A stretch of 64,000 bases of DNA, from positions 640,001 through 704,000 of the forward strand of contig CAVOGR010000001.1 of NCBI GenBank assembly GCA_963695555.1, given 5' to 3'. The translations under genes were made by a program, and so were the position numbers. Positions 23,747-38,461 of this stretch are shown here, piece after piece (position 1 is the stretch's first letter; each line of letters starts with the position of its first letter). The stretch comes from an uncultured Gemmatimonadales bacterium (GTDB lineage Bacteria > Gemmatimonadota > Gemmatimonadetes > Gemmatimonadales > GWC2-71-9). The notes beneath the pieces were generated by a model. It saw nothing but the letters and a program-made list of their open reading frames with translations. It was not told where the DNA came from and did not search any database.

Positions 23747-23849
23747 GGGTGTTCCGGTGCCAAAGTCGTGGATGGGTGGCCAGGTCAGGTCCCGGGCCAC
23801 ACACATTCTAGCTCGTGGAAGGCCCCAGTCGCAGTGACGCTCAACCACG

Positions 23850-23962: not shown

Positions 23963-24895
23963 TCAAACAGGCCCCGCCGGGCGTGCCGCCAGTCGCAGCC
24001 CACCGAGCCTGGCGGCTATCCAACTCCAATTCACGAACAAGAGCAAGTGGAACATGCTCACGAAGAAGATTTGCATGCTCAACAAGATGGCCAGATGAAA
24101 GCCCACGGCGGCCGGGACGAGGATACGGCGCGCCATCTTCGAGAAGAGCGTCGTCACGAATACCAGCTCGAACAGGAATACGGCGACCGCCCCGAGTGTC
24201 GTCAGCACGGCAGACCCGGCGACGAGCGATCCCAGGTTGCTGACCTGGTGCCCGGGGACGATGTGGGCGAAGAGCACGGCTTGACGGCCGATTTGTTCCG
24301 GACTGAACCAGCCTAGTCCATGGTGATACAGCTTTCCCCAGAACCCGAACAGGTAGATCTGCGCCACGAAGAGCTGCATGAGGCGGAGCGGCCAGGTGTA
24401 CTCCCAGTGGGGTGCGATGGACGCCGCGCCACCGGTGCGACGGCCTACTCGCCAGACGTCGGCACACCTGGCCGCCGAGAGCACCACCAGGCTCAGGACC
24501 GCAATAGTGAAGCCCCGCGCGTGAGGGTCCGTTTCGACCAAGAACGTCTGGAGCGGCGCGAGGTGGTACAGCATCACCGCAGCCGCCAGCGCTGCCACGC
24601 GTGTCCAGAGCCCCAAGAGCACGGCCAGGAGGGCGACGAGCGCGAGTGCCTCGATGATCTGTTCCACCCCGGGGTGACCCGGGAAGATGAGAAAGCGCCA
24701 TTGGGCCGAGAGCCGTGCTTGCCACCAGAATCCCTGGGGAATACCGGACAGCGCCGCTATGTCCCAGGACCAGACAACCCACATTGCATGTGCCGCGATG
24801 ATAATACGCGCCGCCGACAGATTTGCGGCGGCGCCGGGCGTGTACCACAGTCGCTGCCACTCGTGTTTCAGCCACCCTAGCAATCGCGCACTCAT
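23963..24895 (-). CDS. HTTM / vitamin K-dependent carboxylase-like (SdpB-like) membrane protein, copy 2
   Basis: Multi-TM; NLSAARI, YTWPLRLMQL..AQIYLFGFWGKL, FELVF, GFHLAI; paralog of 27171..28106. Confidence 0.7.
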   Translation of the reverse strand: MSARLLGWLKHEWQRLWYTPGAAANLSAARIIIAAHAMWVVWSWDIAALSGIPQGFWWQARLSAQWRFLIFPGHPGVEQIIEALALVALLAVLLGLWTRVAALAAAVMLYHLAPLQTFLVETDPHARGFTIAVLSLVVLSAARCADVWRVGRRTGGAASIAPHWEYTWPLRLMQLFVAQIYLFGFWGKLYHHGLGWFSPEQIGRQAVLFAHIVPGHQVSNLGSLVAGSAVLTTLGAVAVFLFELVFVTTLFSKMARRILVPAAVGFHLAILLSMQIFFVSMFHLLLFVNWSWIAARLGGLRLAARPAGPV

Positions 24896-25548
24896 GGCGC
24901 GATGTACTCGAAGACGAGGCTGCGCGGTTGGTCCGCTGCCGCTTGTGGAGGCTCATCGAGGTTGGCGTGAAACTGGTAGATCCTGAGCCCCTTCACGTCG
25001 AGCGGGCTCATACTGTCGCCGTGCGTCCACACCGGCGGCAGCACCAGCCGGGGACGCGCGGCCAACGGCCCCCGGTCGCCAGGAAGGCGACGGCCCGCGT
25101 CCAGGTCTCCGCGTGCCCTGGCGATTTTGTCGAGGAGCCAGGGGGCCACTTGGGCGAATGCCTCCGGATTCCGACGGCGGGTCCGCTCGAGCCAGGTATG
25201 GAGGTCCATCCAGTCGATGGGATAGAGCGCTCGCAAGTCCAAGTCGTGCTCGACACCCTTGTCGTCGACGACGACGGGACGGAGGCCCGAATACTCAGCC
25301 ACGAAATACTCGTTGTCCATCGGCCAATGAGTGAAGGGCCACATTTCGTGCTGCATCGCCCCAACCGCCATGCTCACCACCACGGAGAATGCCACGAGGA
25401 GGCCCACCCCCCTGCGCCGCTCACCCGGCGAGCGGACGAGCAGGCTGCCGGCGCGTACCGCCAAAACGACGAAGGTAAGGAATACCACGAGCCGGGCCAT
25501 GTCCGCGATTGCCGTCAGACTCGACACTGGCCCTCGGATGTCTTGCAC
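24892..25548 (-). CDS. HTTM partner protein (SdpA-like), copy 2
   Basis: Two TM helices then HEMWPFTHWPM; paralog of 28103..28819; overlaps the HTTM gene start. Confidence 0.6.
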   Translation of the reverse strand: MQDIRGPVSSLTAIADMARLVVFLTFVVLAVRAGSLLVRSPGERRRGVGLLVAFSVVVSMAVGAMQHEMWPFTHWPMDNEYFVAEYSGLRPVVVDDKGVEHDLDLRALYPIDWMDLHTWLERTRRRNPEAFAQVAPWLLDKIARARGDLDAGRRLPGDRGPLAARPRLVLPPVWTHGDSMSPLDVKGLRIYQFHANLDEPPQAAADQPRSLVFEYIAP

Positions 25549-25647
25549 GGAGGGAGCATATTTTCGAGTGAATGCGTTGGCAGAGCCCGTGTGTCGTGAG
25601 CTCGGCGAAGGGTGGGGCGCAAGCTTAGGCGCTCACTTCGAGCGGAG

Positions 25648-25851
25648 TCACCCCGCGTCACCGGCACCACTCGACGACGTGGCAACCGCCTTTAAGGCAA
25701 AGCGCATGGCCTCACCGAGTAATTCGGGAGGATAGGCCTGGAGGAATGGTTCTGGAGGATCCACGTATAGCCAGAAGATCTCCATGCACTGTTCGTCGCT
25801 CAGCTCCTCGATCCAATCAGTGCCGGCTACGTCCGGGCTCTGTTGTGCCAT
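25648..25851 (-). CDS. 67-aa acidic hypothetical protein
   Basis: GGAG RBS 6 nt before ATG (MAQQSPD...); fills the intergenic gap on the cluster strand. Confidence 0.5.
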   Translation of the reverse strand: MAQQSPDVAGTDWIEELSDEQCMEIFWLYVDPPEPFLQAYPPELLGEAMRFALKAVATSSSGAGDAG

Positions 25852-25966
25852 CGACCGCTCCACGTCCGGAATAGGTGGTATGGGTGCGCGCTCCGGCCTG
25901 CAATCTGTGCGTGATAGCGGCACCAGGACAAGCGAATGAGGACCTCACACGTCGTGCGAGTGAGTC

Positions 25967-27154
25967 TCAGCTGCTTTCCGGCGTCCGCGTGGCGGGCAGA
26001 TCTCGGGAACCCATCAGCTTGACCGCGCCGGCAATCGGCAGCGCGCTCGCGACCAAGAGAGCCCGATATGCCGCTCTGACGGATACCCGCCAGGCTCGCC
26101 CCAGGCGAGGGAACCGGTGCTCCAGCCAGGCAATGAAGCGGTAGGGGGACGGCTCCAGGGTCCGTTGCCACACCTGATGGATCCAGAGCGCTCGGCGCTC
26201 CCGCCTGCCCAGCAGCAGCGCGAAGGTCCACTCGGCCAGGTCTCTGGCGCGGGCCGCGGAGACCGGAAGTCTCCGTGTTAGCTGCCTCACCAGGTAATGG
26301 GCGAGCGCCAGGTGGCGGAACCGATCGGCGGTCGGAACACCCGTCGACATTGCGTGCGCCATCGCAAGGACGTCGCCGAGTGGTGTTGCGTACTCGTGTT
26401 GATCGACTCGTGTCTTCAGCCCGGTCAGCTCCTCGGCCCCGCATGCTGCGACCGCATCGGCCACCACGATCACGTCCCGCAACCGACCCCGCCGGTTCGG
26501 ATGGTCCACCACGGCATGCCGGAGGACATGCCACAGATGATCAGCCGGCGCGAGCGCGTGCAGGCCGGAACAGCCGGGAACCGGCGTGAGCCCATGCCAC
26601 ACTCGCTCGGCGGGTGGCGTGCCGTCCGCGTCGAGGCTGAGGTGAATCTCGACTGGCAGGGCATTGGGCGTAATCCGGGCACCGAGATGCTGGGCGGTGC
26701 TGAAGATGGCGCCGTGGCCCCGCTCATCGAGGATGGTTGCCAGGGCCCCCGCCGCGGCCCCCGGTAGGAGGATGTCGACGTCGTTGAGGTCGACCGGCCC
26801 GGGGCCGACGAGCGCGGACAGCCCGCCCTTGAGCACGGCCGGGCGCCAGTCTCGCTCCAGCGCGATCCGCCCGAGCTCATGCAGTTGGCTCCGTGCGGAG
26901 AGGACCCGGGTCTGCTCGTCCAGGGCCCGCTCGCGGATCGCGTTCTGGACCTCCGAAGTAAGCTGCGGGAGATGACCCGTGGTCTCCAGGCATCGCTCGA
27001 GCCGGATGGCACAACGCTCGGCACGCAAGAACGCGTGCCATGTCGCGGGTGAGCAGGCAAGTGCCGGCTGCCACGTGGGTCCGGCGGGCAGGCCACTCAG
27101 CGTTCGCAGAGCCAGTTCGCGAAGTCGGAGTGCTCCGCGGGGCGATCCGCTCAT
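25967..27154 (-). CDS. Nucleotidyltransferase family protein (NTP_transf_5-like, as in lasso/RiPP clusters)
   Basis: VLKGG, DLNDVDILL and VEIHLSL motifs. Confidence 0.8.
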   Translation of the reverse strand: MSGSPRGALRLRELALRTLSGLPAGPTWQPALACSPATWHAFLRAERCAIRLERCLETTGHLPQLTSEVQNAIRERALDEQTRVLSARSQLHELGRIALERDWRPAVLKGGLSALVGPGPVDLNDVDILLPGAAAGALATILDERGHGAIFSTAQHLGARITPNALPVEIHLSLDADGTPPAERVWHGLTPVPGCSGLHALAPADHLWHVLRHAVVDHPNRRGRLRDVIVVADAVAACGAEELTGLKTRVDQHEYATPLGDVLAMAHAMSTGVPTADRFRHLALAHYLVRQLTRRLPVSAARARDLAEWTFALLLGRRERRALWIHQVWQRTLEPSPYRFIAWLEHRFPRLGRAWRVSVRAAYRALLVASALPIAGAVKLMGSRDLPATRTPESS

Positions 27155-27170
27155 GTCGGATGAAGTCGAA

Positions 27171-28106
27171 TCACGGCACAGCAGCGTGGAGCGGGACTCG
27201 AGGAGCGCCTGCCGGGCGCTTCAACGCCTTGAGCCACACCCAATCCCAGTTCACGAAGATCAGCAGAAGCAGCGCAGTGACGAAAGTCAAATTCATCGCA
27301 TATGCGATACCGATATGGAATGCCAGCGCGGCAGGCACGAACCAGCGCCGGGCCATGGACGAGAACATGACGGACACAAATCCGAACTCGAGGACGAGTG
27401 CGCCAATGGCGATTCCGAGGCAAATCGTGGGATGCGACGCGATCCAGAGCCCAAGCGCCTGGAAGCGGGCCACTTCGGGGTCCTGCACCAGATAGAGAAT
27501 CCAGCGCCGGATGTTGTCGGCGGACACCCAGTCCAATCCCGTCCGCACGATCTTCGACCAGCCGGAGAAGAGATAGATTTCGCATATCAGCAGCTGGATG
27601 AGTCGAAGCTGCCACGAGTAGGCCAATCCTGGGCTCGGCTCGCGGTTTCGGCCGGGTGTAATGAGGGAAAGGCGGTCATCGCAGCGCGACAGGGAAAGGA
27701 GGATGAGAGCCAAGACGGGAATGGTGAGACCGCGAACGTACGGCGTCGATATCCAGATGATCCCTTCGAGTGGCGCCAGGTGGTAGAGCAGGATCCCGGC
27801 TATGGCACAGCACACGCGGGCGTAGATACCTACCAACGCTCCGACGAGCGTGACGAGCGCCACGACGAGGAGAATACGCTCCAGTTCCGGGTGACCGGGG
27901 AAGACGAGGTACCGCCACATCGTGCTCGGGTCCACCCGAGACCAGAAGACTGACGGTAGCCCGGAAATGGCTGGGTAGTCGCGGGAGAGGAGGATCCAAA
28001 GAGCCTGGGCCGCTACCAGCACTCGAGCCACTGCCAGATTGAGCGCAGATGCGTGCTGGAACCAGAACCAATCCCAGGACGAGCCCCTGGGAGCCACGCC
28101 TGTCAT
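27171..28106 (-). CDS. HTTM / vitamin K-dependent carboxylase-like (SdpB-like) membrane protein, copy 1
   Basis: WDWFWF, NLAVARV, YSWQLRLIQL..EIYLFSGWSKI, LEFGF, AFHIGI. Confidence 0.72.
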   Translation of the reverse strand: MTGVAPRGSSWDWFWFQHASALNLAVARVLVAAQALWILLSRDYPAISGLPSVFWSRVDPSTMWRYLVFPGHPELERILLVVALVTLVGALVGIYARVCCAIAGILLYHLAPLEGIIWISTPYVRGLTIPVLALILLSLSRCDDRLSLITPGRNREPSPGLAYSWQLRLIQLLICEIYLFSGWSKIVRTGLDWVSADNIRRWILYLVQDPEVARFQALGLWIASHPTICLGIAIGALVLEFGFVSVMFSSMARRWFVPAALAFHIGIAYAMNLTFVTALLLLIFVNWDWVWLKALKRPAGAPRVPLHAAVP

Positions 28107-28819
28107 GGCGTCTGCTCCGGGAATTCGTGGAGCACCTCTCGGACGAGCTCGGTCCGGCCTTCATCGACATTCCACCATTCCCGAATGACCCGCACACCGA
28201 CGAACGGCTCGGCAGGGGCATCATCCGGCCGGGACCACACGGTGGGATGCAGCATGTGCTCCGGTGCGGTGAGCGGTCCGAGAAATCGATGGAGATACCC
28301 CACGCGGCGGCCCTGCCGTGCCTGGACTCGCCCTGCATTGGCACGATCGAGCAGCCAGCGGCTCGCCTCATCCTGCTCCGCGGGTGTCAGGGTGGTGAAT
28401 CGGAGATCGAGCCACGCGATCAGTTCTTCCCATTGGAGCGGATGCCAGGATCGAGAATCGACGACGTGTTCTTGGCCGTTCGCACCAATGGCGAACACGC
28501 GGGCGTGACCGACCTCGGGCGAGCGCACGTCGGGGATCATGGACCAGGCCGAGAACGGCCAGAGTTCTCGTCGCGAGAGTCCTGCTGCCATACTGATTCC
28601 CAGAGTGAACACCACGAGCGCATTGACGGCCCGCCGACGCGTGTACGATGATCGTCCGGTATGTTCCGTCCACCATACCCGTGCCGCCGAGAGAAGGAAC
28701 ACCACCCAGCCGAGGGCCGGCACCAGGTTCTTGACCCAGCGCGGGATGGTACTCTCCGCCATGAAATCTGGAATGCGCCGCTCTTGCACCGTCGCCCTCC
28801 GCAGTCGTGCTGCGATCAA
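28103..28819 (-). CDS. HTTM partner protein (SdpA-like), copy 1 (alternative start 28762)
   Basis: Two TM helices then RELWPFSAWSM; coupled to the HTTM gene by an ATGA overlap. Confidence 0.6.
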   Translation of the reverse strand: MIAARLRRATVQERRIPDFMAESTIPRWVKNLVPALGWVVFLLSAARVWWTEHTGRSSYTRRRAVNALVVFTLGISMAAGLSRRELWPFSAWSMIPDVRSPEVGHARVFAIGANGQEHVVDSRSWHPLQWEELIAWLDLRFTTLTPAEQDEASRWLLDRANAGRVQARQGRRVGYLHRFLGPLTAPEHMLHPTVWSRPDDAPAEPFVGVRVIREWWNVDEGRTELVREVLHEFPEQTP

Positions 28820-29748
28820 AGATGATTCGTGGGGCCGGTATCGGGCAGGACCGGCACCCGGCCACTCAGGTGAACCACTCCGTCCTTGCAGTAGAGCAGG
28901 GCGCCGTCTGCGGTGCGCGCGACCGTCCCGGCGCGCTCGGCCACCGTCTGGTGGCGGAATCCCGGCACGCTGGCATACTCTACGGGTTGGCCCATGTCGT
29001 CGAGCAGGGGCTCATGGAATCGGGGGACCAGGCCCGCCAGAAAGTGCCACACTCGCTCGACATCCCACTCGGCGAAATCGACCATGCGGCTTCCGGGCCC
29101 GATCATCGGAGCGGCGGTGGCTCGCTGGTGGTCTTGGGGAATCCGGGGGGCTGTCCCACGCTCGACGGCCTCGAGGGCCCGCCGCAGCAGGGCGCCGCCC
29201 TCATGGGCGTTCCGTCGGTTCAGGGCTTCGACGGGGTACCCCCGTGGCAGCGGCATAGCGTTCTGAAGGAGGATATCGCCGGTGTCGGCATGTTCATCCA
29301 CCCAGTGCACCGTCACCCCAGTCTCGCGATCGTCCTGATAGTAGATCCAAAACAAGGGAAGGACTCCCCGGTGCCGCGGCAGTAATGACGGATGGCTATT
29401 GATGGCACCGATCGCCGGCACCGCGAGGAATGCGGGCGGGAGAATCCAGCGATACCCCGCGATGCAAAAGAGATCCGGCTGGAGTTCCTCGAGGCGTTCG
29501 ACGATGCGGATATCGTTGCCGGAGCGTGCCGCCCAACACGGGATGGCATGCTCCCTGGCCACTGCGGTGAGGACGTCCGGGGTGCCAATTCTGAGTGCCC
29601 GGGCGGCCGCGGCGACGCGCCGGCGAACTCGCGATCCTCGCGCGAAGGAAGCCGCGCGGATGACGGCCACGACGCGATGCTCATCCACGATCGACCGTAA
29701 GTGCTCAGCCGAATACTCGCCGCCCATGCCGAAGAACGCGATTTTCAT
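28816..29748 (-). CDS. N10-formyl-THF-dependent formyltransferase (Fmt-like)
   Basis: MKIAFFG start, INSHPSLLPRHRG, GVTVHWVDEHADTGDIL. Confidence 0.88.
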   Translation of the reverse strand: MKIAFFGMGGEYSAEHLRSIVDEHRVVAVIRAASFARGSRVRRRVAAAARALRIGTPDVLTAVAREHAIPCWAARSGNDIRIVERLEELQPDLFCIAGYRWILPPAFLAVPAIGAINSHPSLLPRHRGVLPLFWIYYQDDRETGVTVHWVDEHADTGDILLQNAMPLPRGYPVEALNRRNAHEGGALLRRALEAVERGTAPRIPQDHQRATAAPMIGPGSRMVDFAEWDVERVWHFLAGLVPRFHEPLLDDMGQPVEYASVPGFRHQTVAERAGTVARTADGALLYCKDGVVHLSGRVPVLPDTGPTNHL

Positions 29749-29856
29749 CAGTGGGCGACTGTGTCTCGGGCAACGCGACGCACGATCAAGCCGGTGCGGT
29801 GACGCATGGGGTGTGGGATCGTTGGGCGGCGGGATATGTTTGGCCCATGCACACCG

Positions 29857-30513
29857 ATGGGTCTGAGTGACCCCGCGGCCGATCGATCGACGCCCATGGA
29901 GAACGAGGTGCGCCACGTGAGGCCGGACGACGCGCCTGCGGCGGCTCGAGTCCGGGTGGTGGAGCCGTCGGAGGTCCGGGCTGTTGCCTCGCTGCTCAAG
30001 CGCTCGAACGAAGTAATCGAATCGCGAATTGTCGGGGCGAGCATGGGTGCCACGATGCCGGCGGGGACTCGGATCCGCATCCGGTGCGGCGACGTGTCGG
30101 AATGGTCGATCGGCGCAGTCGTGGTCTTCTTCACGGGACGCACCCTAGTAGGACACCGAGTCGTCGCACGGGGAACGGGACGGGCCAAGGACTATTGGGT
30201 CACGCGGGGCGATGGTACGATCTTCTGTGATGCGCCGGTGCACCAAGACGTGATCCTCGGGGTGGTGACTGAGTGCGCGGGTGGAACCGACTGGCACCCG
30301 GTGCCCGCCTGTGTCCCGGCCGGCTCCGTTCGTCGACTGGCTGCAAGCGCCGCCGGCGCCATCCTTCGCTTATTGCTCAAAATCGACGTTGCCGTTGCCA
30401 CGCGGTGGGCCACGGGGACCGTTCGATTGGGCCATGGGTTCAGGCGGCTCCGTGGTGAGAAGCTCGGGACCCGGCCCGCCGCCGCCGGCCAGGACGACTC
30501 GCCCGGCGGCTAG
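29857..30513 (+). CDS. S24/S26 family (signal peptidase I-like, Ser-His) peptidase
   Basis: GASMGATM nucleophile box, VGHRVV, TRGD; start uncertain (29857 or 29896). Confidence 0.7.
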   Translation: MGLSDPAADRSTPMENEVRHVRPDDAPAAARVRVVEPSEVRAVASLLKRSNEVIESRIVGASMGATMPAGTRIRIRCGDVSEWSIGAVVVFFTGRTLVGHRVVARGTGRAKDYWVTRGDGTIFCDAPVHQDVILGVVTECAGGTDWHPVPACVPAGSVRRLAASAAGAILRLLLKIDVAVATRWATGTVRLGHGFRRLRGEKLGTRPAAAGQDDSPGG

Positions 30514-30521
30514 CTGCGGTC

Positions 30522-31304
30522 TCAATCGATTCCCAGTCGCTCCCGTACTGCGGCCCGGCGGGCATCGGACTGCTGGACCGCCACCTCGACCTCGCCCGGA
30601 TCGAAGCCCGCCTCGAGCCGCGCCTCCGTGGCCACCCCGTACTTCACGACGTTGGTGCCGCCCTTGGCGAAGACCTGCTCGAAGGCGCGCGCACCCTGGG
30701 TGAGGGCGCGGGACATGTGCAGCACGTTCCGCGGATCCTTGCCGAGTTGCTCCTTGATCCAGTCGTTGGCGAATCGGATGTGCAGCACTTCGTCGGCCTG
30801 CTGGGTCTCATACATCTCGGCGAGTTTGTCCTCGCCGTCCCGTCGGGCCTCCTCAATGGCGTGCGTGACCGCATCCAGTCCGTCGGCCTCGAAGGTCCGG
30901 TTTTGGACGGCGAGGCGCCCGACGAGCGTATCGATCTTCCGAAGAATCCGGTACTGGAAGTTCATCACCGGGTATTGGCCGACCTCTCCGCCACGTGCCT
31001 CGAGGAGCTCGCGGTAGGTGTCGACATGACGCGCTTCATCAGCAGCCTGCCGGGCCAACCAATACCGGATGTTCCAGTCGGCGTCCGGGAAGTCGGTGAT
31101 ATTGCTGGCCGCGTTTTCCAGGACGTTGCATTCCTCGTTCATCTGCCGGTGGAAGAACTCCATTTTCCACTCGGGATCATCCTCCGGCAGGTTGACCATG
31201 TCGACCCAGACTTCCTTCACGGTAAAGCGTTCGTCGCGCGCGGGACCCTCTCCGAAGAACGCAGGGTCGAGTGCCGGGTGGATCGTCGATGCCATGGTGT
31301 TCAC
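30522..31304 (-). CDS. Ferritin-like diiron protein (DUF455-like) A
   Basis: NEE...DEARH...FEA...DEVLH: full diiron carboxylate ligand set. Confidence 0.8.
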   Translation of the reverse strand: MNTMASTIHPALDPAFFGEGPARDERFTVKEVWVDMVNLPEDDPEWKMEFFHRQMNEECNVLENAASNITDFPDADWNIRYWLARQAADEARHVDTYRELLEARGGEVGQYPVMNFQYRILRKIDTLVGRLAVQNRTFEADGLDAVTHAIEEARRDGEDKLAEMYETQQADEVLHIRFANDWIKEQLGKDPRNVLHMSRALTQGARAFEQVFAKGGTNVVKYGVATEARLEAGFDPGEVEVAVQQSDARRAAVRERLGID

Positions 31305-32098
31305 CTTAGGGCGGATGGAATGATGGTGCGGAATCCGGCCTGGCTGAGCACTTCCTTGATTTCATCCATCGTAAACTCTGCCTCGAGCCGATCCTCGATA
31401 TTGACCGCCGGGGGGCGGAGCTTCTCTTCGGTCCACACCGTCCCGACGACGTTGGTCTCGCCTGGTTTGAGCTGCATGGAGCCGATCGCCTTTCCCAGAA
31501 AGCGTACGGCCATCGCCACCTTCAGCAGGATGGCCGGATTCTCCTCGGTCATGCGCTTGATCCACCGGTTCCCGAAGCGCACGTGGGTAATCTCGTCGGC
31601 CAGGATGCTTTCGAGCATGTCGGCGGTGGCATGATCGCCTTCCTTCCGCCATTTGTCCCGGAGCGTGCCCAGGAGATCGATCAACCCCGCCTCGAAGGTG
31701 CGGTTCTGCACCGCGAGGCGGCCCGGCAGGTTGTCCAGCATGTTGGTTACGCCCCATTCGAAGTTTGCGATGGGGAACTCGCCCTTCGCGCCGCCCATTT
31801 CCACCAGCCGGTTCAGCAGGAGGTCGGCGTGCCGGGCCTCATCCGTGGCCTGCCGCGCCAGGTTCATGCGGAGGCCCCAGGGCGCCTCCGGGAAGTCCAC
31901 CAGAGCCTGCGCCGCGATTTCCATCGCGCCGGTCTCATTGTTCATGTGGCGGTGGATCCGCTCACGGCGGGAAATCTCCGACATGTCGGGCCACTCGTGC
32001 ATCTCGTCGTCGGTATTGACGACCGTGAAGCACTCCTCCCGTGCCGGATCGGCGGCGAGGACAAAGCCGCGGATCTCCTTGGTTGGTGCACTGTTCAC
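31301..32098 (-). CDS. Ferritin-like diiron protein (DUF455-like) B
   Basis: NNE...DEARH...FEA...DEITHVRFG; paralog of A; GTGA overlap. Confidence 0.8.
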   Translation of the reverse strand: MNSAPTKEIRGFVLAADPAREECFTVVNTDDEMHEWPDMSEISRRERIHRHMNNETGAMEIAAQALVDFPEAPWGLRMNLARQATDEARHADLLLNRLVEMGGAKGEFPIANFEWGVTNMLDNLPGRLAVQNRTFEAGLIDLLGTLRDKWRKEGDHATADMLESILADEITHVRFGNRWIKRMTEENPAILLKVAMAVRFLGKAIGSMQLKPGETNVVGTVWTEEKLRPPAVNIEDRLEAEFTMDEIKEVLSQAGFRTIIPSALR

Positions 32099-32670
32099 GA
32101 CGAGACCCTCTCGAGCGTCTGTGGCGGCGCGGGGCGGAAGGCGATGAAATCCGCCGGCGCCTTGGCGATGGACTCGAACCGGCTCTTCCAGCCCTTGTCC
32201 TTGGGCCGGAGGTCCGGTCGCTGGTCACGGAATTGCCGGTAGTCCGCTTGCATGCGCTGGAAGTCGCTGAGCACCCGCTCGATGACCCGGACGGACGGTT
32301 CGTCCTGCATCTGGTTGGTGCCGTCGAGATAGGCTTGATAGCGCTGCTCGAGATCCGGCAGGAACCCGGCATACATCGCCTCCGCCCGCTCCGCCGTGTC
32401 GGTCAGACCGGCGAGGGTGTCCAGCACCTTCATGTAGGCGTCGGTGGGCCGGGCGCTGTAGTGCAGCGGCGCTCTGAGCTCACTGGTGCGTTGGCCCAAC
32501 CCGTCGGCTTGCTGGGCCATGTCCCAGATGTGGCGGCCGAACAAAATCTTGGCCTCGAGCTCCGGGGTGAGCGGTACCCAACGGGCCAGCGTTTCCATCA
32601 GGTTGACGCTGATGAAACGAAACGTGCCAATGGCGTCGGCTCGCTCGCGAATCGTGTTGTATCCCATCAC
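32095..32670 (-). CDS. Degenerate ferritin-like helical protein (likely metal-free partner subunit)
   Basis: LMETLARW..ELEAKILFGRHIWDMAQQAD: helical bundle pattern with ExxH replaced; translationally coupled on both sides. Confidence 0.6.
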   Translation of the reverse strand: MMGYNTIRERADAIGTFRFISVNLMETLARWVPLTPELEAKILFGRHIWDMAQQADGLGQRTSELRAPLHYSARPTDAYMKVLDTLAGLTDTAERAEAMYAGFLPDLEQRYQAYLDGTNQMQDEPSVRVIERVLSDFQRMQADYRQFRDQRPDLRPKDKGWKSRFESIAKAPADFIAFRPAPPQTLERVSS

Positions 32671-33686
32671 ACATCTCCTAGGGCTTCAATGAGGTCCGTA
32701 GTGTCATCTGGCGTGCCAACGTCGAGAAAGAAACAGCGCGTGCTCGACATGAGACGCAGCATCTGCATGATTCGCAAGGCCCGTGGCACACCCCACAACG
32801 TGCACCCTAGCGGCGTCAGGAGCGACAGGTGGTCGCGTCCCGGGCTGAACCCTTCGAGGTGGGCTGTCTCGCTGAATCGCCGCAGGAAGATAATCGCGCG
32901 CACCGGCGCTTCGGAGTGACCGGCGCCTGGGAACAGGCTGGCCACCTCGCCTCGCAGGCGGCGGGAACCGTCGGGGAATTGTTCGTGGCGCAGTCCTCCC
33001 TGCTCGACCAGCCGGTCCACGGCACGCGGGCGCGGGCCCTCGCGAATCGATACCGACCGGCGCATTGGGATCAGGTCCAGCGTGCCGACCCTGACTCCGG
33101 CGATCTCGTCGCCCAGGAACCCGTGTCCGCGCTCCGCCAATGCGAGAGAGAGGGTCGTCTTCCCCGATCCCTTCGGCCCCACCAGGAGAATTCCCGAGCC
33201 CCGGACGCTCGCCGAGGCGGCATGAAAGAAGAGGAGGTCGCGCTGGCGTCTGAGCAGTCGGTTGAGCGCCAGATTGCCCAGGAGCGACTGCCACTGGAAG
33301 TCGCGATCGGCCAGAGCGTGGGGGCCGGAGAACGCGAAGGGAGCCCCAGGGCCGGGAGCATCGAGCCGGCGCCATCCGGCGGACGGCGGCTGCCCCTCGG
33401 TGTATCCCCGCTCGCCGAACAGCTCGAGCGTGAAGTCCACCAGGTCGAGCGGCTCGGCATCCTCGAAGCTGACCAGCGCGGCGTTGAATCGTTCGAGCAG
33501 CCGCACCTGGCAGAGTACCCTTGGCAGGTCCGCCCGATCGGGGCCCGGGACGACGCACTCGGCGTAGAGTTCCCGGAACCGCTCACCGAGCGGTTCGTCC
33601 TCGGACTGGATGCCCAGATAGCCGTCCCCGATCTGATACCAATCGGGGAGGCCCGTGAGGGGCCTCCCCGATTCCTGCTCCTGCAC
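32667..33686 (-). CDS. HPr-kinase-like P-loop kinase (RiPP peptide kinase type); start uncertain (GTG 33686 or 33758)
   Basis: FFHAAS, Walker A GPKGSGKTT, FLGDE; the ORF-track start at 33935 overlaps the precursor gene and is unlikely. Confidence 0.8.
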   Translation of the reverse strand: MQEQESGRPLTGLPDWYQIGDGYLGIQSEDEPLGERFRELYAECVVPGPDRADLPRVLCQVRLLERFNAALVSFEDAEPLDLVDFTLELFGERGYTEGQPPSAGWRRLDAPGPGAPFAFSGPHALADRDFQWQSLLGNLALNRLLRRQRDLLFFHAASASVRGSGILLVGPKGSGKTTLSLALAERGHGFLGDEIAGVRVGTLDLIPMRRSVSIREGPRPRAVDRLVEQGGLRHEQFPDGSRRLRGEVASLFPGAGHSEAPVRAIIFLRRFSETAHLEGFSPGRDHLSLLTPLGCTLWGVPRALRIMQMLRLMSSTRCFFLDVGTPDDTTDLIEALGDV

Positions 33687-33790
33687 CGCAATCGACTGGC
33701 TACACCACTGGGAGATTGCGTCTGACGCGCCCGCCAGGTTGGGCTGGCCGTGCGTCACATCATGGGCGATCCGAGGGTTCGAATCGGCCC
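33641..33790 (-). other. Three tandem stem-loops downstream of the precursor gene
   Basis: Hairpins at 33764-33790, 33723-33757 and a perfect 14-bp stem AATCGGGGAGGCCC-N5-GGGCCTCCCCGATT at 33641-33673. Confidence 0.65.
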
Positions 33791-33922
33791 TCAGCCCCAC
33801 CAGGACGCGCCGGCGCTCGTAATCTGGAACGCCTTCAAGACCTCGGCCTCGTCCATGACTTTGACTGCGGGGGCCACATAACGGCGCCGAGTCGACTCCG
33901 ACTGCATCTTCTGTTCGGCCAT
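33791..33922 (-). CDS. 43-aa RiPP precursor peptide candidate MAEQKMQSESTRRRYVAPAVKVMDEAEVLKAFQITSAGASWWG
   Basis: GGAG RBS 7 nt before ATG; YxxP RRE-recognition motif; lies directly between PqqD/RRE and the kinase. Confidence 0.8.
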   Translation of the reverse strand: MAEQKMQSESTRRRYVAPAVKVMDEAEVLKAFQITSAGASWWG

Positions 33923-34051
33923 GCGATAACTCCAACGATTAGGGGGAAATCGAACAAGTAAATGTAAGAACTTTTCACCTCGGGCGCCAGCCTGGATTCC
34001 TTGCCGCCCGACGACTGTCAAACAATGATACAACGAACCGGCCGCCCTGTA

Positions 34052-34324
34052 TCACGATGACTCGACAATCAGGTCGAGTCGCTGGAACTCCTCGAGGACG
34101 CGCTGGACGTCGGCGGTGGCGGTCGCCACGTCGACACCGTCGAACGACTCACACACCTCGGCTGCCAGCTCCTCCACGGTGCTGGGGGAGGAGAGACAGT
34201 TCCACAACAGCGTGGAGGTCTCGTTCAGGACGCAGAATTGCTTGCTTGACGGGTTCAGGAGAATCGTCTCTTCCAGCATCGGCGATCCCTCGATGTTGGG
34301 ATTGCGCCGGTATCGAATGCTCAC
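34052..34324 (-). CDS. Stand-alone PqqD-family RiPP recognition element (RRE)
   Basis: 90 aa; ETILLN...FCVLNETSTLLWNCL...TVEELAAEVCESFDGV...DVQRVLEEFQRLDLI fits the PqqD pattern. Confidence 0.9.
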   Translation of the reverse strand: MSIRYRRNPNIEGSPMLEETILLNPSSKQFCVLNETSTLLWNCLSSPSTVEELAAEVCESFDGVDVATATADVQRVLEEFQRLDLIVESS

Positions 34325-34383
34325 CGCGGGCTCCTTGGTCAGTGACGATGTGGAACTCTGTCATGGTCAATGTGGTACGACTG

Positions 34384-35262
34384 TCAAGATGGACGGCGCC
34401 CGCCCGAAAACGACTCGGCGGTCTTGGATGGTGGCGCGGCCACCGAACGCCGGACCAGCTGCCGGAACGGAACCACCAACTGATGCGGCAACGACTCCGG
34501 CATATCCAGCCCATCTACCCCGTAGCGTTCCGGACGCTCGGCGTGGGCGGCCGCCGTGCCGAACAAGTGGTCCCAGAGGCTGAGCATCTGTCCCAGGTTC
34601 TTGTTGTGGTCCTTCGGGTCCGCCGAGTGATGCACCGAGTGGAAGATGGGGCTGACCACGATGCGGTAGAGCGGACCGAACCGCCAGTTGAGCTCCGTAT
34701 GGTGGAGCGCCTGAAGCGAGGTCGCCAAAATGTAAAGCGGCATCCACGACCGAGTTGGAAGGCCGAGGGCAAACACGAATACCACGAACAGCGCAACATC
34801 GAGCAGCAACCGGTCGAATGGATGCCGACGATATTGCGTGAGCGTGGTCAGCCGCTCTTGCGAGTGGTGGACGCTGTGAAATGCCCAAAGGAGCGGCACG
34901 CTGTGCTGGAGCCGGTGGACCCAGTAGAGCAGGAAATCGCCCGCCACCCAAAATACCAGCAATGCGAGCCAGAGAGGCGCCGACGCCAGGAGGTCGAATT
35001 TGAGGAACTGGAGTTTCGCTTCGAAGGCGTTGGCGACTGCCGCGAAAATCAAGATATGGTAGAAGGCGCCACGGTAGAAGAGGCTATATACCACGTCGTT
35101 CAGGAAGCTTCTCGTCTTGTAGCGGGCGAGATCCGCCCCGGCCCGACCTTCGAGCACCACAATCGCCGCCAAGAATGGCAAGAGCAAGAGCCCGGCCCTG
35201 ACGGCGGACATGCCAAGCTCTTGGAGACGCATGGTTGCAACCAGTTCTGCCAGTGTGCTCAC
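34384..35262 (-). CDS. Sterol desaturase / fatty-acid hydroxylase superfamily membrane diiron enzyme
   Basis: His boxes YWVHRLQH, FHSVHHS, ALHH and FHSVHHS; NLGQMLSLWDHLFGT. Confidence 0.88.
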   Translation of the reverse strand: MSTLAELVATMRLQELGMSAVRAGLLLLPFLAAIVVLEGRAGADLARYKTRSFLNDVVYSLFYRGAFYHILIFAAVANAFEAKLQFLKFDLLASAPLWLALLVFWVAGDFLLYWVHRLQHSVPLLWAFHSVHHSQERLTTLTQYRRHPFDRLLLDVALFVVFVFALGLPTRSWMPLYILATSLQALHHTELNWRFGPLYRIVVSPIFHSVHHSADPKDHNKNLGQMLSLWDHLFGTAAAHAERPERYGVDGLDMPESLPHQLVVPFRQLVRRSVAAPPSKTAESFSGGRRPS

Positions 35263-35363
35263 GGTGCGGTCGGGAATTCCCTCGAAGAAGTATGATGAAA
35301 TGGTTCGAAACCCGGCGAACCGTAATCACGCGGTCTCGGCGGGGTCAACCTTTTCGGGGAATC

Positions 35364-37388
35364 TCAATCGAATTCGGCCTCGAAGTGCCGGGCCCAGGCC
35401 GCGAGGCCGACCAGCCGCCAGACCAAGAAGCTGTTGCGCAGCTGATCGCCTTTGGAAATCCGGCTCAGGAATCCCGACAGCGGTTGCCCCGATTGGACCG
35501 CCACTAGCAAGCGCTCGACCACTCGTCGGTTGACCGCGGGAATCCGACCGGCCTCCGCCAGCAAACCTGGCAGGTTCGGGACCAAGGGAATCCACGCCTG
35601 AATGGGGACGGCAAACCCTACCTTGTCACGCCGATCCAGGATGGCGTCCGGCACCAGGCCCCGCATAGCAGCCCGGAATACCGCCTTGCTCGTGCCTGAA
35701 GCGTCCACCAGATACTCGGCTGGGAGGGACAGGATAAATTCGGCGAGTTTGGTGGTGAGGAACGGCAGCCGCCCCTCGACCGAATACGCCATGGAGTTGC
35801 GGTCCTCGTAGCGCAGCAGGGTGGGGAGGCTTTTCTCGCTGATCGAATGCCACAGGGTGCGCCGAATCCCTTCCTTGCCGACACCCACCCACCAGAGGTT
35901 CCGCGTCCCGATGCCGTGAGCTCGGCACCACGCGCGGTCGATCCAGGGACGCTGGCCGCGCCCGGAGGCCTTGACGGCAGCGGTACCGAGCCAGGCCGGC
36001 AGGGCCATGGCGAGACCCCACAGGGCGGTGTGGCCGGCCGATGGATCCCAGGGCTGGCGCGAGGCCCTGGTTTGCCTCAGAAAGCGCGCCGCTTGGCCTA
36101 TCTGGCCGCGCCCCAGATGCTCTGCCATCCGAGCCGACCACAAGTAGCGATATCCGCCTAGGAGTTCGTCCGCTCCCTGCCCATCCAGGACCACCCGCAC
36201 ACCCGCTTCACTGGCGCGGCGGAATAGGCGGTTCTGGGCATAGATGGCGATGGTGCCGAACGGCTCATCCTGCGATTCGATGAGGTGGTCGAATTCCCGG
36301 ACCCATTCCCCCGGATCGAGGTGGATCTTACTGCTCACGGCCCCGGATGCCTTGTTGACCACATCGATCCAAGGTTCTTCGCTCACGGTGCCGGCGCCGC
36401 CGATATAGCTGAATGTGTGAATATCGAGTTGCGGGCCACCCAAATGCCGCATCGCCATGACGATGGCCGAGGAGTCGAGGCCTCCCGAGAGCATGGTGCC
36501 GACGCGAACATCGCTGCGCAGATGAAGCGAGACGCTTTCGAGGAACAGGTCCCTGAGCTCGGCTGCCGCCGCTTCGCGCGAGACGGCTCGTTCATAGTCC
36601 AGGTCCGGCATCCAATAGCAGCTGGGCTCAGTCATGCCGGGGCCGTCCGGGCGGACTTCGGCCCAATGGGCCGCCGGCATGCTCCGGATGCTCGAGAAGA
36701 GCGTCGCTTCGCCGAAATCGGTGATGCCGCGGTCTAGGTAGTCGTAGAGTCGGTGTGGGTCGACCCGGCGATCGGTGCCGGGCAGCTGCAGGAGGGCGGA
36801 TATCTCGGACGCGAAGGCGAACTCGCCGTTTCGCAGGGTGTAGTACAGGGGCTTCATGCCAAAGGGGTCGCGGGCCAGGAAGAGTCGTCGGTCGCGCCGA
36901 TCCCAAACAGCGAAGGCGAACATCCCGACCAAGCGGGGCAGGCACGCCCGGCCCCATTCGGCATAGGCGGCCAGGAGCACCTCCGTGTCCGACCGCGAGC
37001 GGAATCGATGTCCCCGCGACGACAGCTCGTCCCTCAGCTCGACGTAGTTGTAGATCTCGCCATTGAACACGATCGCATAGCGGCCGTCGGCGGTGAGCAT
37101 CGGCTGATGGCCCGCCGAAGATATATCGATGATGGCGAGGCGCCGATGGCCGAGGACGAGGGTGCCTGATGCGGATCCGGCCTCGTTCGACGCTCCCGTA
37201 CCCTCGTGTGGGAGTGAGGTGCGTCGACCGTCGCGATCGATGGTCGCCGTCGATCCCTCGCGGGGGCAGTCGACCAGGAAGCCCAGATCGTCAGGCCCCC
37301 TGTGGGCAAGCCGATCGAGCAGGCCGCGCACGGTTGCCAGCGCGACCGTCCCCTCACGATGCCCGAGGTATCCGACGATGCCGCACAT
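35364..37388 (-). CDS. asnB: Asparagine synthetase B-like glutamine amidotransferase
   Basis: N-terminal MCGI, HRGPD, HRRLAIID, FNGEIYNY, LSGGLDSS, GQGADEL, EGRLPFL. Confidence 0.9.
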   Translation of the reverse strand: MCGIVGYLGHREGTVALATVRGLLDRLAHRGPDDLGFLVDCPREGSTATIDRDGRRTSLPHEGTGASNEAGSASGTLVLGHRRLAIIDISSAGHQPMLTADGRYAIVFNGEIYNYVELRDELSSRGHRFRSRSDTEVLLAAYAEWGRACLPRLVGMFAFAVWDRRDRRLFLARDPFGMKPLYYTLRNGEFAFASEISALLQLPGTDRRVDPHRLYDYLDRGITDFGEATLFSSIRSMPAAHWAEVRPDGPGMTEPSCYWMPDLDYERAVSREAAAAELRDLFLESVSLHLRSDVRVGTMLSGGLDSSAIVMAMRHLGGPQLDIHTFSYIGGAGTVSEEPWIDVVNKASGAVSSKIHLDPGEWVREFDHLIESQDEPFGTIAIYAQNRLFRRASEAGVRVVLDGQGADELLGGYRYLWSARMAEHLGRGQIGQAARFLRQTRASRQPWDPSAGHTALWGLAMALPAWLGTAAVKASGRGQRPWIDRAWCRAHGIGTRNLWWVGVGKEGIRRTLWHSISEKSLPTLLRYEDRNSMAYSVEGRLPFLTTKLAEFILSLPAEYLVDASGTSKAVFRAAMRGLVPDAILDRRDKVGFAVPIQAWIPLVPNLPGLLAEAGRIPAVNRRVVERLLVAVQSGQPLSGFLSRISKGDQLRNSFLVWRLVGLAAWARHFEAEFD

Positions 37389-37468: not shown

Positions 37469-38461
37469 CTAGTTCCGTTGCTTCGTCGCCAGGTTACTCG
37501 TGAGGGGAGCGGAGAAGGTCGGCGGAGTCTCCTGGACGAGCAGCTGGGTCAGGACGCGCGTCGCGAGGCTGCCGACTGTCATTATCCCATCGGTGTCGAT
37601 CAGCGCGACATCGTCGCGGGGCGTGTGGTATTCGCCGTGAAGCCCGGTATGGAAGAAGAGCACCGGTATCTGCGCCATGAAGAAGCAATACTGATCGCTG
37701 GCCCCCAGTAATTGGCTGTTGTCCCCGTGGGTCGCCAGTTGGCTTGCGCCCGCATCGTTCAGCATCGTCATCCAATCGGCTGACGAGGAGGAGCCGATCG
37801 TCCAGAGCCCGTTCTGAGCGTAGCGCCCCACCATGTCCAGGTTCAGCATGGCCGCGACACTGTCCATGTTGATCGTTGGCTGGCCACAAAAATGCGTGGA
37901 ACCAACCAATCCGAGTTCTTCGGCGCCATAGGCCTGGAATAGCACCGAGCGCCGGTCTCGACCGGCCATGTTGCCGCCGGCCACGTACGTGCTCAGGGAG
38001 CGGGCGATTTCCAACAGCAGGGCCGTTCCCGATGCGTTGTCGTCGGCGCCGTTGTAGACCAGGACGGAGTCCGGTCCAACCTGGATGAATCCCACGTGAT
38101 CATAGTGGGCCCCGATGACCACCCACTGCCGGGCGAGGCTCCCGTGCCCGGGCAGGATCGCGAGCACGTTTTGCGACATCCGACCCTGCTGGAGTTGAAA
38201 GTGCTGGAGGTACCCGGGGGTACCGGGTCCGAGGCCGTAAGCCATGAAATGATCGCGCAGGTACGCCGCAGCCTGGGTCTCCTGGGAGGATCCCGCCTGG
38301 CGTCCGGCCATGCTGTCGTCGGCCAGCGCGCCGAGGTGCTCGAGCAGATTGGCTTGGCTCAGCGACGGGGAGGGAGGGGTCGGAGTGGTGTCGTCCCGAG
38401 GCGCTGCCGGGGAGCTGCAGGCGGCGAGCCCGAGGAGGGCCAGGTGAACGAATCCCTTCAT
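37469..38461 (-). CDS. M28 family aminopeptidase, lipoprotein
   Basis: Lipobox LAAC; GAHYDH, GADDNASG, AEELGLVGS, NLDMVG, YHTPRD. Confidence 0.9.
   Translation of the reverse strand: MKGFVHLALLGLAACSSPAAPRDDTTPTPPSPSLSQANLLEHLGALADDSMAGRQAGSSQETQAAAYLRDHFMAYGLGPGTPGYLQHFQLQQGRMSQNVLAILPGHGSLARQWVVIGAHYDHVGFIQVGPDSVLVYNGADDNASGTALLLEIARSLSTYVAGGNMAGRDRRSVLFQAYGAEELGLVGSTHFCGQPTINMDSVAAMLNLDMVGRYAQNGLWTIGSSSSADWMTMLNDAGASQLATHGDNSQLLGASDQYCFFMAQIPVLFFHTGLHGEYHTPRDDVALIDTDGIMTVGSLATRVLTQLLVQETPPTFSAPLTSNLATKQRN

Follow-up and report, generated by a model that had tools for sequence, protein, structure and literature searches.

A conserved cluster of PqqD-family, kinase-like, and ferritin-like proteins around a short Trp-Trp peptide: a probable peptide-maturation pathway of an undescribed class

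Does the gene cluster at positions 23963-37388 of the DNA analyzed here encode a pathway for the maturation of a ribosomally made peptide and, if so, what kind of pathway is it? The DNA is a stretch of 64,000 nucleotides, referred to here as the window, from an uncultured Gemmatimonadales bacterium (contig CAVOGR010000001.1). A preliminary description of the window had proposed that the cluster is a new biosynthetic system for a peptide made on ribosomes and modified after translation (RiPP), in which a RiPP recognition element (RRE) protein and a short precursor ending in WW are accompanied by ferritin-like diiron enzymes. Its gene list was borne out: all 16 expected genes were found at 23963-37388 in the list of open reading frames (ORFs), with strand and order as given. 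We found that the arrangement is conserved far beyond chance and recurs in 87 loci from several phyla. Its conserved core consists of a PqqD protein, a short peptide, a kinase-like protein, three ferritin-like proteins, and an S26-like peptidase. The cluster is real, widespread, and conserved, it belongs to an undescribed class, and its architecture is firmly established. We consider it probable that it is an RRE-dependent peptide-maturation (RiPP-type) pathway. The genes of the core are as follows.

34052-34324 (-), PqqD-family peptide-binding chaperone (RRE); PF05402, 56.8 bits against a cut-off of 23.4
33791-33922 (-), 43-aa precursor peptide; conserved leader, WW, and a GGAG site upstream of the ORF
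32667-33800 (-), HprK/ScmC-like P-loop kinase-like protein; Hpr_kinase_C score below cut-off, start uncertain (GTG at 33800 or GTG at 33758)
32095-32670 (-), Fer191, a protein of 191 aa with a predicted ferritin fold and without diiron ligands
31301-32098 (-), DUF455a, ferritin-like diiron protein; PF04305, 106.1 bits
30522-31304 (-), DUF455b, ferritin-like diiron protein; PF04305, 77.2 bits
29806-30513 (+), S26-like Ser/His peptidase without a membrane anchor; TIGR02228, 29.7 bits, conserved motifs

Co-occurrence of these genes elsewhere had been set beforehand as a test of the proposal, and the genes do recur together. Using the kinase or Fer191 as bait, we gathered 87 related loci, 7 in genome records and 80 on metagenome contigs; the presence of the bait itself in these loci is by construction. 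The kinase-like protein had 67 relatives at an E value of 0.001 or below among 8000 candidates scored. An alignment of 44 kinase relatives led to seven syntenic loci in named genome records, namely, four Gemmatimonadota metagenome-assembled genomes (MAGs), one MAG labeled "Pseudomonadales," one Thermoanaerobaculia MAG, and one Burkholderiales MAG; the other 33 loci from this alignment were P-loop matches only. Searching metagenome contigs with a Fer191 alignment recovered at least 522 relatives among 598 candidate stretches, and the best 80 of these relatives were analyzed. The taxa represented are Gemmatimonadota, Acidobacteriota (Thermoanaerobaculia), and Pseudomonadota MAGs.

Genes were counted by tblastn with the window proteins over the 87 loci, and only loci with enough flanking sequence entered each count. 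The kinase was present in 56 of 56 loci, DUF455a in 65 of 65, DUF455b in 53 of 54, and the S26-like gene in 40 of 42. PqqD was detected in 44 of 47 loci and in all 18 long loci, defined as those with at least 6 kb on both sides. Where the flank sufficed, the order was constant: PqqD, peptide, kinase, Fer191, DUF455a, DUF455b, and S26-like gene. Overlapping junctions had also been claimed for the window, and six 4-base overlaps were counted there (GTGA three times, ATGA twice, and TTGA once); such overlaps link the kinase, Fer191, DUF455a, and DUF455b. Outside the core, the 18 long loci contained the formyltransferase in 14 cases, the HTTM protein and its partner in 13 each, AsnB in 12, FA_hydroxylase in 6, the 67-aa ORF in 5, and the M28 peptidase in none. 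The gene set first proposed for the system is thus conserved in its core, but AsnB, the formyltransferase, the HTTM pair, and FA_hydroxylase are only accessories, and both the M28 peptidase and the duplication of the HTTM pair are peculiar to the window's lineage. For NTP_transf_5, tblastn gave 0 of 18, which we attribute to a failure of sensitivity because Pfam finds the family in 9 of 21 long loci (the Pfam scan of the flanks covered 72 of 97 unassigned flank ORFs, with the outermost dropped).

Fer191 matches were present in 34 of 401 sampled Gemmatimonadota genomes, the window's own included. Sixteen of the matches were strong (E ≤ 1e-65). The other 18 were weak (E values of 1e-24 to 8e-5) and lay in open frames of 448-722 aa; these weak matches, to which that of the unpublished genome G157 belongs, are probably of a fused Fer191-DUF455 type described below. 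Two other genomes belong to the same genus, and both lack a Fer191 match. With strong matches in only 16 of 401 genomes and none in these two, the system is patchy, as accessory clusters are. A Fer191 profile searched against 1.84 billion representatives (clusters at 50% identity) matched 1004 at an E value of 0.001 or below, 369 at 1e-10 or below, and 36 at 1e-30 or below.

The putative substrate of the pathway is the 43-aa peptide, whose ORF lies 129 nt downstream of PqqD. Its leader contains Y15 and P18, its C-terminal end reads ...FQITSAGASWWG, and the core that follows FQ is ITSAGASWWG. The precursor had been described as WW ending; WW is indeed near the C terminus, but the window peptide ends in SWWG, with one Gly after the pair. 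The peptide gene is present in one copy in the window's genome, and the peptide matches no Pfam or NCBIfam model. A small related ORF is located between PqqD and the kinase in seven of seven genome loci, and six of these seven peptides have an ATG start after a GGAG-type site. Alignment of eight peptides spanning four phylum-level groups revealed 12 invariant columns (Y15, P18, V20, V22, E25, L29, F32, Q33, T35, A37, W41, and W42), and the leader consensus is Y..P.V.V[ML].E..[VL]L..FQ. In a larger set, Thr35 and Ala37 vary, and some peptides read FQVPVVAGSWWG.

Whether homologous neighborhoods contain a conserved short peptide had been named as a second test. We searched with peptide patterns in the 48 loci that have at least 1700 nt upstream. 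A strict pattern identified a peptide in 43 of the 48 loci, giving 35 distinct sequences; all 35 contain WW, though the strict pattern did not require it. With a looser pattern ([VILMA][LM]xxF[QE], 3 to 14 residues, WW, 0 to 20 residues, stop), all 48 loci yielded a peptide between PqqD and the kinase, and there was one off-target match in the six frames of all loci. The residue preceding WW is S, T, G, M, C, or V, and the pair is followed by 0 to about 15 residues. At a Burkholderiales locus (L007:8532-8996), the peptide is in frame with PqqD with no intervening stop codon, and no ATG, GTG, or TTG start lies ahead of the conserved peptide leader; from its reading frame, L007 may be a natural RRE-precursor fusion.

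The peptide core also varies with the number of DUF455 genes. Seven loci carry three or four DUF455 copies (L007, L101, L102, L105, L106, L107, and L112). All seven encode a long core, [ML][TS]AA.I..A.[CV]WW, together with a Cys-bearing tail, and in six of them a Cys directly precedes WW as well. This long core, with 11 residues from FQ to WW, is found in no two-copy locus; three shorter loci (L006, L115, and L118) do carry Cys-bearing tails at the C terminus. An ABC (ATP-binding cassette) transporter is present in four of the seven loci with three or four copies. Core type thus covaries with DUF455 copy number, and of the hints available, this one points most strongly to an action of the DUF455 proteins on the core. 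The covariation strengthens the proposal that the diiron enzymes would carry out the class-defining chemistry on the Trp-Trp core.

The cluster was previously said to encode three ferritin-like diiron proteins. DUF455a and DUF455b both score above the PF04305 cut-off of 34.3 bits, and hhalign aligns them with a probability of 100% at 38% identity; by sequence, they are paralogues. Each has the complete E / ExxH / E / ExxH set of diiron ligands. These residues are invariant in 55 DUF455a sequences (E55, E87, H90, E136, E169, and H172) and in 49 DUF455b sequences (E58, E90, H93, E139, E172, and H175). The solved chains nearest to the AlphaFold2 (AF2) model of DUF455a (predicted local distance difference test [pLDDT] score, 89.6) are aldehyde-deformylating-oxygenase-like, with a Foldseek E value of 3.1e-3 and a top VIA Z of 15.8 (192 residues aligned; root mean square deviation [rmsd], 3.6). 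Dps, bacterioferritin, PaaA-like, R2lox, and monooxygenase chains are its next structural neighbors. No solved structure was related to DUF455a by sequence. A phmmer match of DUF455a named "Crov588" (E = 5.8e-12, 0 stretches) was rejected as spurious, Crov588 being a leucine-rich-repeat protein according to PMC9525666.

The third protein, Fer191, has no match in Pfam or NCBIfam, even at an E value of 5. Its AF2 model (pLDDT, 90.4) is a helical bundle, and its top 50 structural neighbors are almost all ferritin-superfamily chains, with VIA Z values from 16.2 to 12.7. The best of these matches (Z of 16.2) aligns 139 residues at an rmsd of 2.5. Among the neighbors are beta subunits, devoid of ligands, from the toluene, phenol, and methane monooxygenases (1t0q_B, 2inn_C, and 1mhy_B); the best Foldseek E value is 0.047, and PaaC is among the Foldseek matches. 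The family alignment contains no ExxH motif, and the invariant residues, including E26, K41, H47, D56, and R61, are on the first two helices. Two of the three proteins therefore retain the full ligand set expected of diiron proteins, but the third is ferritin-like by predicted fold only, and its ligands are missing.

Comparison of Fer191 with the DUF455 profiles by hhalign was not significant (probabilities of 1.8% and 0.1%). The nearest named Atlas cluster is DUF455 (score, 0.82), which we treat as a lead only. The two families are joined in natural fusions. Among 15 longer Fer191 relatives analyzed with Pfam, 8 have a Fer191-like part followed immediately by a DUF455 domain that scores above the cut-off, 1 has DUF455 below the cut-off, and 6 have none; the fused domains are in operon order. 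These fusions, together with the 4-base overlaps, suggest that Fer191 works in a complex with DUF455, and we presume that it is a noncatalytic partner of the DUF455 pair. The fused chains P0102, P0111, P0120, P0130, P0132, P0143, P0172, and P0190 are 409-550 aa long, with a Fer191-like N-terminal part and a DUF455 C-terminal part.

Two further enzymes of the core were named from more distant resemblances. The kinase-like protein scores 25 bits against Hpr_kinase_C (PF07475; cut-off, 33.3), 45 against TIGR04352 (cut-off, 200), and 26.8 against TIGR00679 (cut-off, 240). A profile of its family matches the HPr kinase 3tqf_A in the PDB (E = 1.6e-7, about 50 residues). Its relatives are 342-381 aa long and carry PF07475 or PF27840 "ScmC"; in the family, the Walker A residues G213, K214, and T216 are invariant and D231 is kept. 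The label HPr-kinase-like is weaker than first given: the profile reaches PDB HPr kinases and Walker A is invariant, but the score remains below the curated cut-off.

The S26 label is in a similar position: the motifs are kept in 40 homologues, but the score of 29.7 bits against TIGR02228, the only family match, is below the curated cut-off of 51.85, and there is no Pfam match. The motifs G.SM..P, HR, and T-R-G-D..D.P are conserved in the 40 sequences, and the S26-like protein has no hydrophobic segment; the true start of the window protein is probably inside the ORF 29806-30513. We take these motifs to be of the Ser/His type found in archaeal and endoplasmic reticulum signal peptidases, a reading that fits the match to TIGR02228. 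S26 enzymes of the Ser/His type cleave after small residues at -1 and -3. Since a small residue, in most cases Ala, stands four or five positions past FQ in the peptides, this preference points to a possible leader cleavage site there, and the S26-like protein is a candidate leader peptidase.

The accessory and remaining genes of the cluster are listed below.

35364-37388 (-), AsnB-type glutamine-dependent amidotransferase; Asn_synthase 201 bits, GATase_7 171.5 bits, TIGR01536 422 bits (cut-off, 267); accessory
34384-35262 (-), FA_hydroxylase-family membrane His-box protein; PF04116, 96.2 bits; accessory
28816-29748 (-), formyltransferase of the Fmt/ArnA N-domain type; PF00551, 106.8 bits; accessory
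28103-28819 (-), single-pass membrane protein, HTTM partner; no family match, one transmembrane segment, start uncertain
27171-28106 (-), HTTM-domain polytopic membrane protein; PF05090, 30.8 bits (cut-off, 27.7)
25967-27154 (-), NTP_transf_5 nucleotidyltransferase; PF14907, 53.2 bits; accessory
25648-25851 (-), 67-aa conserved small protein; no Pfam or NCBIfam match
24892-25548 (-), second copy of the HTTM partner; 33% identity to 28103-28819, E = 4e-24
23963-24895 (-), second HTTM-like membrane protein; 39% identity to 27171-28106, E = 3e-61, no Pfam match of its own

The FA_hydroxylase protein has an HxxxH box, two HxxHH boxes, and three hydrophobic segments. The PF00551 match of the formyltransferase begins at residue 57 of a long ORF, and its start (MKIA) is at 29748. 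The HTTM protein has six hydrophobic segments; its partner has conserved motifs and always adjoins it. SdpB is an HTTM protein, and the two pairs had been called SdpA/SdpB-like. That label is unsupported: neither the HTTM protein nor its partner matches an SdpA or SdpB model of NCBIfam at an E value of 5, the partner has no Pfam match either, and the analogy is one of gene order only.

Several small or membrane proteins accompany the cluster. The 67-aa protein is 70-77% identical over 44-49 aa to counterparts in L001, L003, and L005; it contains the highly conserved stretch W.I..L.DEQCMEIFWLYVDPPEPFL...PP.LLG.AMR.AL and stands at the cluster edge in several loci. In 11 loci (for example, L053:12106-13239 and L062:10609-11691), DUF455b and the S26-like gene are separated by the gene for a polytopic membrane protein of about 360 aa without a Pfam family, with pairwise identities of 36-87%. 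It is not encoded in the window, and a one-query search of the genome (87% complete) was negative; in Gemmatimonadota-type loci, the FA_hydroxylase gene takes its place. A second membrane protein, of 450-540 aa and without a family, follows the S26-like gene at L053:13249-14871, L073:13515-14864, L090:12963-14366, and L096:13313-14881, with identities of 71-81%.

How might these proteins act together? The analysis shows the gene set with its order and conservation, the precursor family, the metal-ligand sets, the predicted folds, and the Fer191-DUF455 fusions; the chemical steps, the cleavage site, and the order of events given here are those that we infer, and any single chemical step is much less probable than the overall logic of the pathway. 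The stand-alone PqqD would bind the 43-aa precursor through the conserved leader and hand the core, which is short and C terminal, to the HprK/ScmC-like P-loop protein, which would probably phosphorylate a Ser or Thr of the core. PqqD would also present the core to a three-part ferritin-like oxygenase made up of the two DUF455 proteins and the ligand-less Fer191, which, with O2, would oxidize the Trp-Trp pair by hydroxylation and/or cross-linking. The soluble S26-type peptidase may then remove the leader by cutting behind a small residue that stands a short distance upstream of WW, leaving a core of about 5 to 20 residues. Accessory genes would tailor or export the product. AsnB probably turns a carboxylate, most likely the C terminus, into an amide, and the formyltransferase probably puts a formyl group on an amine; both the FA_hydroxylase-like protein and the HTTM pair would be active at the membrane. 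NTP_transf_5 probably attaches a group to a phosphate, as in pseudomycoidin. There is precedent for such steps: passages of PMC8498205 describe HPr-kinase homologues that place a phosphate on the C-terminal Ser of lasso precursors and a nucleotidyltransferase that adds a hexose to this phosphate, and PMC13060819 describes an asparagine-synthetase-like enzyme that converts a RiPP C-terminal carboxylate to a nitrile.

Several observations weigh against this proposal. None of the members has a known product, mass shift, or enzyme activity. The cluster encodes no reductase or ferredoxin for the diiron site, and the window contains no transporter gene (ABC transporters are present in 5 of 21 long loci). 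No residue is invariant in the interval between FQ and WW, and because all of these residues vary, the kinase target and the cleavage site are guesses. The locus counts overstate the independent support because the bait came from the cluster and many loci are close kin; L041-L043, for example, are 92-99% identical to the window. Foldseek E values for both structural models are weaker than 0.001, and helical bundles reach a Z of about 13-14 through their common arrangement alone. The Z values of Fer191 are only modestly above this level, which makes its fold call moderately strong. Finally, the kinase-like and S26-like scores are both under the curated cut-offs of the nearest families.

If the cluster encodes a RiPP-type pathway, to which known class might it belong? 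The lasso clusters of paeninodin and pseudomycoidin, as passages of PMC8498205 describe them, likewise have a stand-alone PqqD/RRE beside a short precursor with a YxxP-type leader and have an HprK-like kinase, NTP_transf_5, and an AsnB-family protein nearby. In contrast to those clusters, there is no B2 protease here, AsnB is a true Gln-dependent amidotransferase and is dispensable, and the core lacks both an acidic ring-closing residue and a C-terminal Ser; the conserved enzymes are instead the three ferritin-like proteins and the S26-like peptidase. The SynChlorMet (ScmC/ScmD) and HPr-rel-A (TIGR04352/TIGR04353) systems also pair a PqqD-family protein with an HprK/ScmC-like P-loop protein. 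However, scores here are far below the respective cut-offs (45 versus 200 and 26 versus 35 bits for TIGR04352 and TIGR04353, and 22.7 versus 100), which places the cluster outside HPr-rel-A, and the radical S-adenosylmethionine (SAM) proteins ScmE and ScmF of SynChlorMet are absent. The PqqD protein likewise falls short of the cut-offs of the PqqD models for lasso, HPr-rel-A, and ScmD.

Oxygen-dependent systems offer another comparison. MNIOs (DUF692) are TIM-barrel proteins, a fold family separate from the predicted four-helix ferritin fold of DUF455. Their pathways, such as that of methanobactin (MbnBC), are described in the literature as using O2-dependent multi-iron enzymes with a partner on a ribosomal peptide, which resembles the proposal made here. 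The toluene, phenol, and methane monooxygenases (alpha/beta) and PaaA/PaaC likewise combine catalytic diiron subunits with a ligand-less ferritin-fold subunit. Unlike these heteromeric enzymes, to which HMMER found no sequence relationship, the cluster has two catalytic paralogues instead of one and no reductase, ferredoxin, or effector component, and its presumed substrate is a peptide.

Searches of the literature on DUF455, ferritin-like proteins, and RiPPs found no ferritin-like diiron enzyme linked to RiPPs among the papers listed. Nor did we find a description of the cluster in the literature, a search that did not cover the supplements of two RRE papers, which possibly list such clusters. 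Term searches within these two papers gave no HPr, ferritin, or related terms, and "kinase," sought in PMC7470986 alone, is absent there. The view that the cluster matches no characterized RiPP class has therefore held up, with no Pfam or NCBIfam model for the peptide or Fer191 and no match in the literature.

We weighed three explanations other than a RiPP-type pathway of an undescribed class. The first is that a small molecule is built on the peptide, which would be sacrificed in the process, in the way that PqqA gives rise to pyrroloquinoline quinone (PQQ) and MftA to mycofactocin. The diiron proteins would oxidize and cross-link the Trp pair to a tryptophan tryptophylquinone-like compound, which the peptidase would excise to serve as a redox cofactor or mediator rather than a peptide antibiotic. 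The PQQ and mycofactocin pathways share several features with the cluster, namely, a small precursor with critical residues near the C terminus only, a PqqD-family chaperone, oxidative tailoring, and a dedicated peptidase; a PqqD-family chaperone is a hallmark of both, and PF05402 is itself named after PQQ synthesis. WW is the sole invariant part of the core, with freely varying flanking residues and tail, while across phyla there is strong conservation of the leader and enzymes, as in cofactor pathways. The lack of an exporter in the window and the presence of two oxygen-activating paralogues for two Trp residues would also fit. However, the patchy occurrence of the system fits an accessory natural product better, and no candidate for a cofactor-using dehydrogenase is conserved beside the cluster. 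ABC exporters are present in some loci, and tailoring of the peptide termini by AsnB and the formyltransferase would suggest that the peptide survives. Moreover, the PQQ and mycofactocin pathways begin with a radical SAM enzyme. Here, the Pfam scan of the cluster found none, as the preliminary description had stated; the presumed oxidants are ferritin-like diiron proteins, and the kinase-like protein is always present. On balance, we consider this explanation unlikely. The same low standing applies to its boldest form, in which the three-part ferritin-like diiron oxygenase would be a new class-defining RiPP maturase that fuses or oxygenates the adjacent Trp residues of a ribosomal peptide to a tryptophan tryptophylquinone-like chromophore; the outcome would be a diffusible, peptide-derived quinone that serves as a cofactor or redox mediator and is widespread among Acidobacteriota, Gemmatimonadota, and Pseudomonadota of the soil.

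In the second explanation, the substrate of the enzymes is a lipid or belongs to the cell envelope, and the small ORF encodes a regulatory or structural subunit instead of a substrate. Such a role would suit FA_hydroxylase, the formyltransferase, AsnB, and the HTTM membrane proteins, and the recurrence of polytopic membrane proteins (HTTM and the protein of about 360 aa in 11 loci) would fit it as well. Among named families, the FA_hydroxylase protein comes closest to OlsE, an ornithine-lipid hydroxylase (88.6 bits, well short of the cut-off of 475), the formyltransferase resembles the ArnA N-domain, and the solved folds nearest to DUF455a act on fatty aldehydes. Yet these lipid-like genes are the variable ones (6, 14, and 12 of 18 long loci for FA_hydroxylase, the formyltransferase, and AsnB, respectively), whereas PqqD, the peptide, and the peptidase are nearly universal. 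A PqqD gene beside a YxxP-leader peptide is the standard signature of a peptide substrate, and the covariation of core sequence with DUF455 copy number also argues for one. We regard a lipid or envelope substrate as very improbable.

The third explanation, a divergent lasso cluster with AsnB as the macrolactam cyclase and the S26-like peptidase in place of the B2 protease, can be set aside as scarcely credible: PqqD, an AsnB homologue, an HprK-like kinase, and NTP_transf_5 do accompany known lasso clusters (passages of PMC8498205), NF033535 is among the AsnB matches, and the best NCBIfam matches of PqqD are lasso PqqD models (below cut-off), but none of the 16 cluster ORFs matches PF13471 (Transglut_core3), the genome's two PF13471 genes are on other contigs (C5 and C12), AsnB passes TIGR01536, fails the lasso cyclase model NF033535 (289.7 bits; cut-off, 525), retains its N-terminal Cys (MCG), and is missing from 6 of 18 long loci, and the window core, like most other cores, has no Asp or Glu for a ring, all of which agrees with the lasso features that had been reported missing.

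If the diiron proteins act on the peptide as proposed, the cluster would represent the first ribosomal-peptide pathway defined by ferritin-like diiron proteins and would provide the first function for DUF455, a family spanning bacteria to animals. It would also be a natural case of an assembly of catalytic and noncatalytic ferritin-fold proteins on a peptide, and the soluble S26-type candidate would be a new kind of leader peptidase. The system, which is one of soil and sediment bacteria, is common, with 1004 clusters at 50% identity and more than 520 metagenome stretches. Because the core is very small and its Trp-Trp pair is invariant, a test by coexpression and mass spectrometry would be easy.

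The window as a whole has a G+C content of about 65%, and the relatives of the cluster proteins that bear a name are labeled Gemmatimonadales. It also carries rpoB and rpoC-sized genes, the ribosomal protein S12 gene, the gene for elongation factor G (EF-G), and ribosomal-protein genes. To the right, the cluster is flanked by the M28 peptidase gene (37469-38461) and then the S12 gene; to the left (left of 23848) are 2-oxoacid:ferredoxin oxidoreductase genes. The POR_N domain of this oxidoreductase is split across two overlapping ORFs at 21832-23848 (-). ORF 22205-23848 covers profile positions 2-92, and ORF 21832-22722 covers positions 91-171; this division of the domain over two ORFs suggests a frameshift or an assembly error.

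Contigs from four estuary metatranscriptome runs match positions 30500-35300 at 95-100% identity. They cover 30, 8, 18, and 12 of 30 bins in runs X1, X2, X3, and X4, respectively, counts that indicate presence in RNA libraries only, neither proving transcription nor allowing the genes to be ranked. Elsewhere in the same genome, contig C5 carries a canonical lasso cluster at 349-355 kb (L125:6220-12114), with PqqD, Transglut_core3, Asn_synthase, ABC transporter, and NTP_transf_5 genes in this order. The second PF13471 gene, on contig C12 (L126), is near an NTP_transf_5 gene and a radical SAM gene.

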